Of a stretch of DNA of 64,000 nt, positions 19,076-23,777 are shown piece by piece. The stretch's first letter is position 1; the number at the start of each line of letters is the position of its first letter. Origin of the DNA: an uncultured Acidobacteriota bacterium (GTDB lineage Bacteria > Acidobacteriota > Terriglobia > UBA7540); the NCBI GenBank assembly GCA_963804995.1, contig CAWDSK010000002.1, positions 704,001 to 768,000 on the forward strand. The letters run 5' to 3'. The notes beneath the pieces were generated by a model, which saw only the letters and a program-made list of their open reading frames with translations, had not been told where the DNA came from and made no database searches. The position numbers and the translations under genes are program-made.

Positions 19076-19786
19076 GCCAAGATCGCACAAGCCTGCGAGT
19101 CGCCCCGCGAAATGAAAATGCGCCGGGGCTTTCCTCTCTTTGACAAGGAGAGCGTGGGCGGTCGGGGCAGCGACAACCGCTAAGAGTTTGGCGGGCGCGC
19201 TATCAGTTACCGTCGGCCCGCGAGCCGTGCCGTCGCATGATGGAGCGCCAAAACCCGGCGCTGTGGATCTATTTTTGCTCACTTCCCTGCCTTCCTCTGC
19301 CGATAAACGATGCGGAGGAGTGTGGGCGGCCGGGGTGGTGATGACCACTGAGAGTTGCACAGTCGCGCTGTCATTTGCCGTGGGCCCGGGGGCCGTGCCG
19401 TTGAATGATGGTGCTCCAGGATCCGTCACGGCGGGACAATCTTTACTCACTTCGTTGCCTCCCTCCGCCGATAGACGATGTAGGGGAGTGTGGGCCGCCG
19501 GCGCAGGAGATTCAGGGATTCCTCGGAGATCAGGCGCGCAATCGTTTGTCGTCGCAAAAACGGTTAGCACTGCGTCAAGTTCTGTTGTGGTGTGACCATT
19601 TTTACTCACTTCGCTGTCTCCATCTGCCGATAAACGATGCGGGGGAGTGTGGGCCGCCGGCGCAGGAAAATCAGTGCGAGTTCGGAGATCGGGCGGATGG
19701 CCGCTTGGCGTCATGACTGCGGCCAGATCTGCGTCAATACCTGGCGCTGTGAAGCCATTTTTTCTCACTTCCCTGCTTGCCCCCAT
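18743..19786 (-). CDS. Hypothetical protein with four 53-56-aa tandem repeats; the 3' part overlaps the YdcF gene and is doubtful
   Basis: AAHTP(P/L)HRLSA(D/E)xxxEVSK three times plus a partial copy; DNA repeat periods 168, 159, 159 bp; GGAAGGGG before ATG 19786. Confidence 0.4.
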   Translation of the reverse strand: MGASREVRKNGFTAPGIDADLAAVMTPSGHPPDLRTRTDFPAPAAHTPPHRLSADGDSEVSKNGHTTTELDAVLTVFATTNDCAPDLRGIPESPAPAAHTPLHRLSAEGGNEVSKDCPAVTDPGAPSFNGTAPGPTANDSATVQLSVVITTPAAHTPPHRLSAEEGREVSKNRSTAPGFGAPSCDGTARGPTVTDSAPAKLLAVVAAPTAHALLVKERKAPAHFHFAGRLAGLCDLGSNLSPQFPPGQAQDLVDGDLRLVKLRGIGKEVVGLQWILRGKIVSRGGLRLDAQFSKQSHGARHVDGGRDQDKGRFSGEATNPACLFLGVTRLGRQQNVLRVDAECLGDA

Positions 19787-19860
19787 CGACCCCTTCCGTG
19801 GTAAAAGATAACTGCTAACCACCTTTTTTCATCAACATAATGGGTTAGCGACACTAACTA

Positions 19861-21018
19861 GTGTCCTGAGTCAGAAGTTCGCTCAATAAATGGCAGTTCC
19901 CGTGCATTGGGTTTATAACCAGGAGGAATCCAATGCCACGAGGACGCCCTATACCGAAATTGAGTTTGAGCTTGGAAGAGCGCGAAACCTTGCAGCGCTG
20001 GGCACGGCGGCCGAAAACGGCGCAAGCGCTGGCGTTGCGCGCGCGCATTGTACTGGCCTGCGCGGAGGACCAAAGCAATACCGAAGTGAGCCTTGCCCTG
20101 CGGTTGTGTCAGCGAACCGTGGGCAAGTGGCGAGGCCGATTCGTCGCCCAGCGTCTGGAGGGGCTGCTGGACGAACCCCGCCCCGGAGCACCGCGCCAGA
20201 TCCACGACGCGCAGGTGGAACAGGTATTGACCATGACGCTGGAATCGATGCCGTCGAACGCGACCCACTGGAGCACCCGACTGATGGCCCGGCGTTGCGG
20301 GATGAGCCAGAGTGCGGTCAGCCGCATCTGGCGGGCCTTTGCCTTGCAACCCCATCGCAGCGAAACCTTCAAACTGTCGCGCGACCCGCTGTTTATCGAG
20401 AAGGTGCGGGATATCGTGGGACTCTATCTGAACCCGCCCGAACGGGCCTTGGTGCTCTGCGTGGATGAAAAGGCCCAGATCCAAGCCTTGGACCGAACCC
20501 AACCTTTGCTCCCCCTGCGACCCGGGCAGATCGAGCGGCGAACGCACGATTACGAGCGCCATGGCACCACCTCGCTGTTTGCCGCTCTGGAGATGGCCAG
20601 TGGCCAAGTCATCGGCGAGTGCCATCGTCGGCATCGCGCCATCGAGTTTCGCCAGTTTCTGGACACGGTCGATGCCGCCACGCCCGCCCAATTGGACGTG
20701 CACCTGATTCTGGATAACTATGGCACGCACAAGACGCCCTCGATTCGACGCTGGCTGGTGCGCCATCCTCGCTACCATTGGCACTTTACTCCCACCGGGT
20801 CGTCCTGGATCAACTTGGTCGAGCGCTGGTTCGCGACCCTGACCGAACGACAACTCCGGCGCGGAGTACACCGCAGCACCCAAGAACTGGAAGCGACCTT
20901 GCGGCACTACGTGGAAACTTATAACCAAGACCCTAAACCTTTCATTTGGACCAAAACGGCTGACCAAATTCTTGAAGCCGTGGCCCGATTTTGTAAGCGA
21001 ACTTCTGACTCAGGACAC
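19861..21018 (+). mobile_element. Complete IS630-family insertion sequence
   Basis: Perfect 23-bp terminal inverted repeats GTGTCCTGAGTCAGAAGTTCGCT; duplicated TA (CTAG target) on both sides. Confidence 0.97.
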
Positions 21019-21021
21019 TAG
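19933..21021 (+). CDS. IS630-family transposase
   Basis: [54 protein letters not shown]; the stop codon uses the duplicated TA. Confidence 0.97.
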
Positions 21022-21207
21022 CTTATTTTTCAGTAATATAATGGGTTCAATGGAGACTGAAATATTTTCTACATGTGTTTTCAACAACATAATGGGTTCA
21101 ACCTTCATTTTTAATTCCCCCTTTTCTGCTGCACCCACTCCGTCAGATTCAACTAAGTTATTTAATTTCAGACACATAGACGTTTGGACATTTCTGCCAT
21201 CCCACCC

Positions 21208-22312
21208 TTAAGTTCCTTTGTTTTCTAGTATATATTGGGTTAGAAGGTCCTCTTCGCTCGCTTCCACTGCTTCCCTTTTGCCCTCTTGGCGTTTGATTTT
21301 CAGCAGCAGATTGGTGAGTCGGCGCACTTCTCGCAGGTTGGCATCTTGCATGCGCCGCATCAGCAAGCCATCCGCGTGGCTGGGCGCGACTTCCGCCGCG
21401 CGTTCGTAGGGCGAGGGCCCCGCCCAGCGACTGCTTCAGCAGGGCCTTGCGTTGCGTCTCACAACCCTCCGCCTGCCGGCTCAGGATATTCCTCAGGAGC
21501 TTGCGCGCCCGCTCCCGTGCCTTCCAGTCGTCCTTCGTGATCTTGGGGTACCGATCATCCTTTTCCGTATCTTCTCCCTCTTCATCATCGGGAAGTCCAT
21601 CGATCTCTTCGGAGCCTTCGGGCCGGAGCACTATGCGCTCTCCGGAGGGGGTTAGCATAGAGACCGGCGAATCTATCGTCTCCAGTCCGAAGATTGACCG
21701 GAAGCTGTTGATGGCGCCGCGATACCTCTCCTCTTGGGAAACTCCCGCCTTGTCCGCGCCAGGGTCCCGCAGTTGGTAGAAGAGGTCCAGGGCAATCTCA
21801 CCCATTTCGGCCGCTACCCCGTCCTGCTGCAGTTTTTTCATGACTTCCAGGTCTTCGCAGGTGGTGACGTAATGCCAGCAGGCCACCGAGCGGGCCAGCG
21901 AGCGCAGCATTTCCACCGTCATCTTGAGGCGCATCATCCGCGCGTGCAGCCGGTTGGGACGTCCCTGGTCGGCGTTCTGGGCACGGCGTAGCGCGTCGCC
22001 CTCCTGGGAGCGATCGGCACGGTCCATCAGCCACAGGACCCGCGCCAGACGGATCACCAGTTTTTCCTGCAAGGCACCTTGGGGAGTGAATTCCTCGCGG
22101 AGTCCAGAGAGCAGTTCCTCAAAGTGTGCCGGGTCCTCCCCTAAACCGCACAAAGCCACCTCCTGCGCCCGGGCATAGAAGCCATGACGCAGGCGCGCGG
22201 CGCCAGCGCGCTCCTTCCCCTCCACGGTCGCCGGGCCTTGGGATTGATTCCCGTTGAGCCGATTGGCGGCCAGTTTCTTGTCCGACAGTTTATGTTTCTT
22301 AACTAGAGACAT
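21208..22312 (-). CDS. Hypothetical protein with N-terminal 'ANRxNxxxSxGPxTxEGK...HG' motif; frameshift near 21424
   Basis: KLAANRLNGNQSQGPATVEGKERAGAARLRHGFYA, GEDPAHFEELL, EEFTPQGALQEKLVIRLARVLW; removing one G gives ...SPYERAAEVAP...RRMQDANLREVRRLTNLLLK...QYILENKGT*. Confidence 0.75.
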
Positions 22313-22668
22313 GGAAAACCTCCAAGAGCAAAAACGCGTTCAGCCATCAGCCGTCAGCTTTCAGCTTACTGCCTAATGCCGATTCCGACTTGTCAGGACT
22401 CGCAAAGGGGTCTCGCTGCCTGCTGCTTTCTGCCTACTGCCTTCTGTTTCTCCCCAGGCCCCAAGCACCTAGCACCTGGCACTCAGCGCCGGGCACTTCA
22501 CATTAAGATTAACATTTATCGTAGGGGTAATTGCAATGAGAAGATTTACGCTTGGGCTACCGGTAGCCCAAATCGTACAGGAGGGGCGTCTAATTGTCCG
22601 AAATCGTCCCGGCGCTACCCCCGATGTCCGCAAGGCCTTTCGGACGGCTTGCCGCCGGACCAGGAAAC

Positions 22669-22744
22669 GTAGGGGCACCCCTCGTCGGTGCCCTAAGGGG
22701 GCCGACTCGGCCCCGGCCAGGGCAGGCACGAGACCTGCCCCTAC
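22669..22744. repeat. REP-like doublet GTAGGGGC...GCCCCTAC
   Basis: GTAGGGGCACCCCTCGTCGGTGCCCT ... AGGGCAGGCACGAGACCTGCCCCTAC. Confidence 0.75.
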
Positions 22745-22752
22745 CTCCTCCT

Positions 22753-23120
22753 AGCCCCAAAGGGGCGAGCTTCCATAGCCCAGGCCAACGGCCCATAAGC
22801 GCTAAGATAAGGTGCCAATGCGGCCAAATTTGCGGAATCGGCAACTCAAAAATGGCCAGAATCTCATCGTATCTTAGCGCTTATGGGCCAACGGCCTGGG
22901 TAACGGCCTGGGTGAGGCACCCAATTCCCTTTTAATTCCATTCCAGCCCTGAAGGGGCGAGCCAATTGCAGGGGGCCGTACCGGCAGGCGCATCCTTCTA
23001 TCACGCCCATTCAGGGCTCATGCGTCGAAATGGTTTATGCCGTTTACCCAGGCCGATGGCCCACCATTAAGACCGGCGGACCTTCGGCCTGGGCTGTGAT
23101 AGGTCGCCCCGTTGGGGCTC
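22753..23120. repeat. ~370-bp nested palindromic element (REPIN/MITE-like)
   Basis: AGCCCCAAAGGGGCGA/TCGCCCCGTTGGGGCT, AGCCCAGGCC/GGCCTGGGCT, GGCCTGGGTAA/TTACCCAGGCC, AGCCCTGAAGGGGCG/CGCCCATTCAGGGCT. Confidence 0.8.
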
Positions 23121-23288
23121 AGAGGTTGTATGACCCGGAGGTAGCCACGGCCAATTCATCTTAGGAATTGACCGTGGGTTCGCTTTGCACGCCGTCGATT
23201 TCGGCGGAGCCCGTGCCGCTCGATTCGACGGTGAGGTTTAGGCTTGCGTGTAACTACAAAAAGAGCTACATTCAGAAATGAGACGGAA

Positions 23289-23560
23289 ATGAAATACGAA
23301 TGGGACGAAGCGAAGAACCGGAAGAACGTCGCCAAGCATGGCCTCAGCTTCGAGGATGCCGAATCGGTATTTTCCGGACCTTGCGTCACATTCGAAGATG
23401 ACCGTTTCGACTACGGGGAAGAACGCCTTTGGGCTTACTGGCCGGGCGTCTGGTGGTCATAGCCCATTCACCGCGCGATGAGGGAACGCGCATCATCTCC
23501 ATGAGAAAGGGGCGCCGACGTGAACAAAAAATCTATCAAAAGCGACTTGGCACGGATTGA
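23289..23560 (+). pseudogene. brnT: BrnT-family toxin, frameshifted near 23427
   Basis: MKYEWDEAKNRKNVAKHGLSFEDA...DYGEER, then in another frame GLLAGRLVVIAH...RIISMRK. Confidence 0.85.
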
Positions 23561-23777
23561 CCGCATGCGGGATGCCGATATTGACTATTCGGACATTCCC
23601 CCGCTCGACAAAACGTTTCTCAAAAAGGCCACGACGCCTTGGCCCCCGGCGAAAAGGCAATTGACGATTCGTCTCGATGCGGACGTGCTCGATTGGCTCA
23701 AGGGCCAGGGCCGGGGCTACCAGACGCGCATAAACCGCATTCTGCGCATTGTGATGGAGAATCAGCCCCACGGCTAG
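23520..23777 (+). CDS. brnA: BrnA-family antitoxin
   Basis: DIDYSDIPPL...TIRLDADVLDWLK..GRGYQTRINRILR; overlaps brnT. Confidence 0.9.
   Translation: MNKKSIKSDLARIDRMRDADIDYSDIPPLDKTFLKKATTPWPPAKRQLTIRLDADVLDWLKGQGRGYQTRINRILRIVMENQPHG

Follow-up and report, generated by a model that had tools for sequence, protein, structure and literature searches.

A damaged cassette in the window

The window analyzed here is a stretch of 64,000 nucleotides from an uncultured acidobacterium (Terriglobia, UBA7540; assembly GCA_963804995.1, contig CAWDSK010000002.1, positions 704,001 to 768,000). On its minus strand lies one damaged copy of a cassette that comprises a palindrome, a promoter, a gene for an unnamed protein predicted to be helical, and five phased motifs. 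The features of this copy, followed by two of its surroundings, are listed below by their positions in the window.

22592 to 22641, minus strand: 5' edge of the cassette, with a conserved TTCGGACAATT block at 22592-22602; similarity to the closest paralog fades near 22641, with no sharp end
22554 to 22569: perfect 16-bp palindrome GGGCTACCGGTAGCCC, a likely activator site, also found at the promoter of a head-tail operon
22506 to 22536, minus strand: predicted promoter, with -35 element TTGCAA (22531-22536), 19-nt spacer, and -10 element TAATCT (22506-22511)
21208 to 22312, minus strand: gene of an unnamed protein family modeled as all-helical, 367 codons in the frame of its relatives, broken near 21423 by one added base
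21209 to 21242, minus strand: motif 1, overlapping the final codons and stop of the gene
21153 to 21186, minus strand: motif 2, 56 bp past motif 1 and the weakest of the five copies
21066 to 21099, minus strand: motif 3, 87 bp past motif 2
21018 to 21048, minus strand: motif 4, 51 bp past motif 3, its 3' tail interrupted by an insertion sequence (IS)
19814 to 19847, minus strand: motif 5, 41 bp past motif 4 without the IS; the similarity of many copies stops a few bases further on, at GTTA
19858 to 21021, plus strand: IS630-family insertion with a DDE_3 transposase (19933-21021), 34-nt inverted ends, and CTAG at both ends
19150 to 19781: four GC-rich tandem units of 159 to 168 bp after the array; several of the other cassette copies are also followed by similar sequence

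The first-pass annotation of this sequence had proposed that the gene carries one extra G near 21424 and that its product, with this base removed, ends in TQYILENKGT inside the first motif. Comparison with relatives bears out both statements. The minus-strand open reading frame (ORF; 22312 to 21208) stays in frame 0 until about 21423, and the conserved C terminus, LLTQYILENKGT followed by the stop codon, lies in frame 1. Relatives have CTGGCGGG at the position of the break, where the window has one G more, and three of four runs represented by public contigs have one base fewer at 21423 than the window. A paralog at C2:501438, 97.7% identical to the window copy, has the same added base, which points either to a real, shared lesion or to a systematic read error. 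As a gene, the window copy is probably inactive. In close homologs generally, the gene likewise ends within motif 1, and the C terminus of many reads HDVxENKG.

The five motifs begin, on the minus strand, at about 21240, 21184, 21097, 21046, and 19845, and with the IS discounted (1160 bp), all four spacings fall within the 40 to 90 bp originally described. The tract is AT rich as claimed, with a GC content of 0.36 at 21000-21199 versus approximately 0.55 to 0.65 around it. The IS interrupts motif 4 within its 3' tail, and its removal does restore this motif: the IS-free junction matches paralogous arrays, and the joint (19856 to 21017) is present in public contigs of four of four runs, which come from a single study. 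The earlier description had omitted the 5' half of the unit, namely the palindrome and promoter, as well as some 60 further copies.

Dispersed copies and the protein family

We built a motif matrix from the motifs of the window and defined an array as at least three motifs. Below, G000 denotes the host genome (7.55 Mb), other G numbers denote related genomes, and C and L denote contigs and loci. Scanning G000 yielded 459 matches and 61 to 62 arrays, compared to 50 matches and no clusters in block-shuffled DNA. Arrays occur about once per 120 kb, on both strands (26 versus 36), and we looked for a replichore or strand bias in G000 and found none. Spacings of 51 bp (58 times) and 40 or 41 bp (51 times) recur; since these distances correspond to about five and four helical turns, the array is expected to act as DNA. 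The arrays tested for RNA structure showed none (mean fold z-score, +0.64; n = 18).

It had been noted, as resemblances only, that the TTATGTT core of the motif is like the XerD arm of dif and that its reverse strand is like IHF sites. We regard it as very improbable that the cassette is a Xer- or IHF-dependent recombination element. Besides the core and an AT-rich pseudosymmetry, this reading can draw on a surplus of motifs that match the Escherichia coli IHF consensus WATCAANNNNTTR, from which the host's may differ, with two mismatches (108 of 289, versus 65 of 289 shuffles). At one mismatch or fewer, however, the surplus vanishes (6 versus 9 of 289). Furthermore, 272 of the 289 motifs have at least three mismatches to the XerD arm, neither a clear dif-like site nor a XerC arm was found, and the arrays are direct repeats rather than single 28-bp sites.

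The proposal that gene and array form one unit fared better. G000 contains 13 family ORFs, 12 of which have a motif cluster 0.3 to 1.3 kb downstream of the start (four of these clusters consist of only one or two motifs); the 13th had one motif in a separate scan. At least three motifs are present at 18 of 20 congener gene loci, and the remaining two loci stop at contig ends. An intact G000 copy, at C2:130794, encodes 371 amino acids. The alternative set against this proposal, that the motif is spread independently of the gene, is borne out by half: most arrays are gene-less, with a gene N terminus within 1.6 kb of just 8 of 62, but the gene-less arrays examined retain the cassette 5' end, often together with gene remnants. 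Deletion joints of the gene-less type are also present in public contigs.

Cassettes measure 0.5 to 1.7 kb, a full one being approximately 1.6 kb with a single ORF. Copies lie in unrelated flanks, some form near-identical pairs (94 to 98%), and their ends are fuzzy and mosaic in pairwise comparison. The notion of a noncanonical dispersed element is likewise supported, with about 60 copies and gene-less derivatives in G000. In 43 copies, we found neither terminal repeats (longest shared flank word, 5.5 direct and 5.9 inverted, versus 5.5 and 5.7 in shuffled pairs) nor a target-site duplication above shuffled pairings. A comparison of filled and empty sites found no congener that spans both flanks of the window copy, the relatives being too distant. 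A separate insertion of approximately 2 kb, with 96 to 99% identity, recurs at the same point in cassette remnants (array positions C3:399654, C6:925434, C5:110755, and C6:890595), which suggests an IS that targets cassettes. Two tail-to-tail cassettes with truncated arrays lie at C6:1401618-1403101 of G000.

The protein belongs to a family with the N-terminal motif ANR..STGP.T.EGK..NA.KHG. Against Pfam and NCBIfam, the window protein and alignments of 37 and 13 members gave only scattered weak rows; PDB sequences gave no match, and no literature was found under the domain name HGGxSTG. The Atlas yielded unnamed clusters and SEC-C-fused clusters under 0.9. A profile of 37 sequences retrieved 36,632 clusters at 50% identity, 18,594 of them at an E value of <1e-10. 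Close relatives carry Terriglobia labels, and 117 of the 132 host-family genomes contain the gene; when 150 other genomes were sampled across the phylum, with only 15 candidates scored per genome, 3 gave a match. A pattern scan found at least 120 stretches, of which the 80 analyzed came from Acidobacteriota, Planctomycetota, Alphaproteobacteria, Verrucomicrobiota, and others. The association of the family with Acidobacteria and Planctomycetes, as originally made, is correct in that the family is common in both phyla among the stretches listed. In the same stretches, a related, strand-specific motif, AACGAACCCA, is enriched 3' of the gene (14 downstream, 0 upstream, 2 antisense). Cultured phages gave no family matches, and plasmids gave 1 and 4. 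At five loci (L061 to L065), Alphaproteobacterial-type members are preceded by genes for a RecE-like exonuclease and an Erf-like annealing protein, and two of the five have TerL near.

Two structure models are all-helical, and fold searches with them returned nothing at an E value of ≤0.001, only generic helical bundles (Z ≤ 8.7). Library searches for DDE, HUH, DEDD, serine, and tyrosine recombinase domains gave no match, and the helical models lack a match to any of the listed folds, which is weak evidence. The residues conserved across the family are E, W, R, R, and H. The median dN/dS over 15 intact genes is 0.38, indicating that the protein is under purifying selection.

These properties bear on whether the cassette represents a new class of DNA transposon. 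In this reading, an unrecognized transposase or recombinase would bind the 3' array and move its cassette intracellularly, and the shared palindrome would do no more than time this activity to particle production. [quoted passage not shown] However, terminal repeats of the cassettes, direct or inverted, do not exceed those of shuffled pairs, their ends are fuzzy and mosaic, the models have no listed match to a DDE, HUH, serine, or tyrosine recombinase fold, and the family is almost absent from plasmids and cultured phages. We therefore consider a transposon unlikely.

The palindrome shared with a head-tail operon

G000 contains 56 exact copies of GGGCTACCGGTAGCCC, and the 16-mer is invariant among them despite flanks that are only about 50% alike. 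The palindrome precedes the -35 element by 16 to 18 nt, and the promoter spacer is 19 nt in 48 of 60 palindrome-linked promoters; a consensus promoter scan with 16- to 18-nt spacers reported no promoter in the window copy. The center of the palindrome lies upstream of the start by about 60 bp. Sites centered there have the geometry of class I activation, and the palindrome therefore probably serves as an activator site. Palindrome and promoter stand within 1.6 kb upstream of 43 of 62 arrays and within 4 kb in 47, with one on the wrong side; reciprocally, a motif cluster lies no more than 4 kb away from 57 of 61 palindrome-linked promoters.

The palindrome also occurs without an array. Four copies lie within C5:300717-333120 of G000, in the promoter region of an operon (C5:301168-333120) that encodes an endolysin, TerL, a Mu-type portal, a protease, a capsid, and tail-like proteins, and they occupy the same position as in the cassettes. 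The portal gene of G000 is in two ORFs. The operon capsid is found in 23 of 28 congeners, mostly in single copy and with 90 to 95% identity, and in 109 of the 132 host-family genomes, where identity drops genus by genus; the host genes upstream of the operon are common to five congeners. Among the ORFs inspected at the ends of the G000 operon, which are a subset of the flanking ORFs, there are no replication or integration genes, and a cI/cro-like pair remains. The distribution of the capsid and the shared upstream genes show the pattern of a domesticated, vertically kept cluster that resembles a gene transfer agent (GTA). Congeners have, immediately upstream of the operon promoter, a gene for a zinc-ribbon protein of Ogr/Delta-like type (Pfam Ogr_Delta E value of 2.3e-4, below the cutoff).

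Two further observations concern this operon and its relatives. In G000, a divergent cI/cro-like helix-turn-helix pair and an Ogr/Delta-like gene (at C5:135951) lie apart from the operon (C5:132547-136172); in G191 and G015, they are contiguous with it. In addition, extra capsid paralogs that are 79 to 84% identical to the operon capsid occur at L269:3724-10422, L270:951-2972, L271:1143-5134, L272:4093-12692, and L273:13978-20000. They belong to short, multicopy units in which an AAA ATPase and a protein with an integrase core (rve) are encoded facing away from the capsid gene; the stretches fetched contain no TerL, portal, or array. These units are candidates for a transposable, capsid-bearing satellite of the operon.

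The variant of the palindrome follows lineage at the operon and the cassettes together. G000 has 56 GGG-type and no TTCC-type sites, the GGG type standing at operon and cassettes alike. In congeners, 7 of 11 operon promoters have tandem TTCC-type palindromes, and the genomes concerned contain 17 to 62 TTCC-type and no GGG-type sites. One congener promoter has a degenerate palindrome, and the three congeners without an operon palindrome (G004, G005, and G020) have one or two sites each. G015 carries a hybrid palindrome at both operon and cassettes (13 copies), and in G191, the operon has a TGCC-type palindrome, as do 6 of the 15 arrays sampled. Many exact TGCC palindromes had been predicted for G191; only two are present, along with five degenerate ones on inspection.

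A skeptical reading of this linkage holds that the cassettes are passive repeats, spread by repetitive extragenic palindrome (REP)/RAYT systems, IS elements, and gene conversion, and that the operon promoter was derived from a cassette end, or converted by one, without any functional tie. GTAG-type hairpins beside many copies fit this account, as do the CTAC/GTAG inside the palindrome core and the resemblance of the operon promoter flanks to local cassettes. It does not explain why the 16-mer is invariant at a constant 16 to 18 nt from the -35 element while its flanks diverge, why the palindrome changes symmetrically between lineages, or why the gene is under purifying selection, and we find it highly doubtful.

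A proposed role in packaging and known systems

The single functional pointer for the protein family appears to be to small terminases. At the viral locus L068, a protein encoded directly upstream of TerL and portal aligns with the N-terminal 46 columns of the family (hhalign, 98%) and matches Pfam Terminase_4 above the cutoff. When 89 members were compared with PHROG, which gave weak matches, three of the four at an E value of ≤0.01 were small terminases, and two of these cover the entire core. TerL lies near the family gene in five of nine viral loci. A position directly upstream of TerL was seen at the viral locus L068 alone; none of the 13 G000 copies has it. Members of phrog_9231, sought in 151 genomes, gave one marginal match. 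ORFs that resemble phage terminase genes by eye directly follow a distant member of the family at L023 (G044:C1:1853618-1857031). A small terminase that redirects packaging is a candidate identity for the cassette protein.

Our preferred reading, offered tentatively, is that the cassette is a minimal packaging parasite, or a helper, of a GTA. A host- or operon-encoded activator, for which the Ogr/Delta-like zinc-ribbon protein is a candidate, would bind the palindrome and induce the operon and the cassettes together; because most copies share the operon's upstream palindrome, such co-induction is likely. The few copies that are intact would supply the protein, which could then bind the helically phased arrays in trans, each array acting as a pac-like site. 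The operon's terminase would begin packaging at the arrays, and cassette DNA and its flanks would be overrepresented in particles. In recipients, recombination with resident copies and flanking repeats would fix the DNA, and this would account for fuzzy, mosaic ends without target duplications. The anatomy of the cassette, its copies and gene-less derivatives, the shared and co-varying palindrome, and the conserved operon are shown, whereas binding of the array, co-induction, contact with the terminase, and mobility are inferred. More speculatively still, the whole superfamily might be a packaging adaptor derived from TerS that, together with its own phased binding array, makes up one-gene selfish elements hijacking an undescribed acidobacterial GTA via its late activator; these would then be the first GTA parasites, and their arrays a genome-wide map of packaging starts.

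Several observations weigh against a packaging parasite. The operator is absent at 15 to 19 of 62 G000 arrays, at 9 of 15 in G191, at all six in G004, and, by eye, at about 11 of 20 congener gene loci; moreover, a pac site needs no promoter, yet gene-less copies retain one. TerL of G000 is split into two ORFs (it is intact in G191, G001, and G005). The operon contains no motif array and has an ORF of its own in the TerS position, which fits a parasite that redirects packaging but also agrees with no packaging role. Likeness to true TerS is confined to the N-terminal motif; 85 of the 89 family members have no PHROG match, the window protein has no PHROG match to TerS, and fold searches, including four of two models, gave nothing significant (viral TerS rows had E values of 1.3 and 1.8). 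The superfamily also occurs in many phyla beyond the family in which the operon was traced. Finally, the G000 operon promoter flanks are more like those of its own cassettes (0.49) than those of congener operon promoters (0.37 to 0.39), so that co-variation may result partly from sequence exchange rather than from coevolution with a factor, and the relatives compared are not independent.

Two other readings keep the link to the operon. In the first, the network is domesticated by the host: the arrays are distributed start sites for GTA packaging of the whole chromosome, and the protein is a separate DNA-recognition subunit. The presence of the gene in 117 and the capsid in 109 of the 132 family genomes and the placement of arrays, about one per 120 kb without strand bias, speak for it, and known GTA small terminases are described as having no DNA-binding domain (in the sections of PMC11841831 drawn on here). 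Copy number differs widely among relatives, however, several gene copies are broken or IS-interrupted, and copies lie in differing flanks rather than at conserved loci, which makes this reading quite improbable. We give similarly little weight to the second, in which the cassette transcript or protein is a co-induced inhibitor or decoy: instead of redirecting packaging, it would dampen or titrate the operon, or else phages or satellites related to it. Gene-less copies do retain an operator and a promoter directed into the array, some 55 surplus operators could titrate an activator, and the operon-related, capsid-bearing candidate transposable units in congeners are a sign of conflict; on the other hand, the arrays lack RNA structure, their fixed helical spacing fits a DNA-protein complex, and the multiplication of copies is left unexplained.

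Some features around the window copy stand apart from this argument. The IS630 is a later passenger outside the cassette proper, with a second, identical copy at C3:1066080. Through the tandem units at 19150-19781 runs a minus-strand ORF of 359 codons, for which no family match was found. Heptamer-type short repeats lie between promoter and gene (22350-22460), and nested GTAG-type hairpins lie just beyond the cassette 5' end (22669-23130), followed by a BrnT/BrnA toxin-antitoxin pair (23244-23777) in which brnT is apparently truncated or frameshifted.

The cassette is real, widespread, and undescribed in the literature searched; its mechanism is moderately uncertain. One of the largest families without a Pfam entry gains a concrete, testable candidate role, and the results point to a GTA-like operon that has been retained throughout a family of Acidobacteriota abundant in soil and sediment. 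Why GTAs persist and whether selfish DNA biases their cargo is an open question, for which this genome offers about 60 candidate start sites. Should the packaging step prove wrong, a dispersed element that lacks the hallmarks of a transposase and has an operator co-varying, across species, with an operon of phage origin would still be a new type of arrangement in the literature searched.

Parts of this arrangement recall several known systems. The lambda cos site consists of cosN and the cosB R sites, which are bound by the small terminase. The cassette resembles it in having a phased direct-repeat array beside a packaging-related gene; it differs in that no cohesive-end site was identified and that its palindrome lies at a promoter, 0.2 to 1.5 kb from the array. 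IS families give rise to MITE derivatives, gene-less internal deletions that keep both ends, and the cassette likewise has few gene-bearing and many gene-less internal-deletion copies with both ends kept; unlike them, it has no terminal inverted repeats, target duplication, or recognizable transposase. In the P2-P4 pair, satellite promoters share the late-activator (Ogr/Delta) site of the helper. The cassettes share the palindrome of the operon, and the Ogr/Delta-like gene upstream of the operon in congeners is a candidate for a similar activator, but the palindrome is another sequence, and P4-like integrase, replicon, and size-determination genes are lacking.

Phage-inducible chromosomal islands (PICIs) are described as elements of approximately 9.5 kb with an integrase, a regulator, and a primase-replicase, whose small terminase redirects helper packaging (PMC10085698, in the portions used here). 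The proposed mode of the cassette, a small-terminase gene that turns helper capsid packaging to its own DNA, is that of PICIs and of the Staphylococcus aureus pathogenicity islands (SaPIs). In contrast to these, the cassette measures 0.5 to 1.7 kb, has one gene and about 60 copies per genome, and has no integrase or replication gene; we found no recombinase match, no att-like flanking direct repeats above control, and no primase-replicase in it. Its apparent helper, moreover, is a vertically kept operon and not an infecting phage. The cassette belongs to neither the PICI nor the P4 class.

In open papers, mostly abstracts and exclusive of supplements, neither the cassette nor the operon as a GTA is described; the sections of PMC5900883 consulted list acidobacterial prophage clusters and mention no GTA or such cassette. 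According to the same sections of PMC11841831, described GTAs need no pac site, their small terminases lacking DNA-binding domains, and DsGTA shows packaging peaks. The linked operon resembles RcGTA, DsGTA, and CcGTA in being single copy, family-wide, and of head-tail-lysis content, with no replication gene at the ends inspected. It differs from them in its Mu-type portal and in that its operator is shared by dispersed arrays and by a TerS-related gene separate from it.

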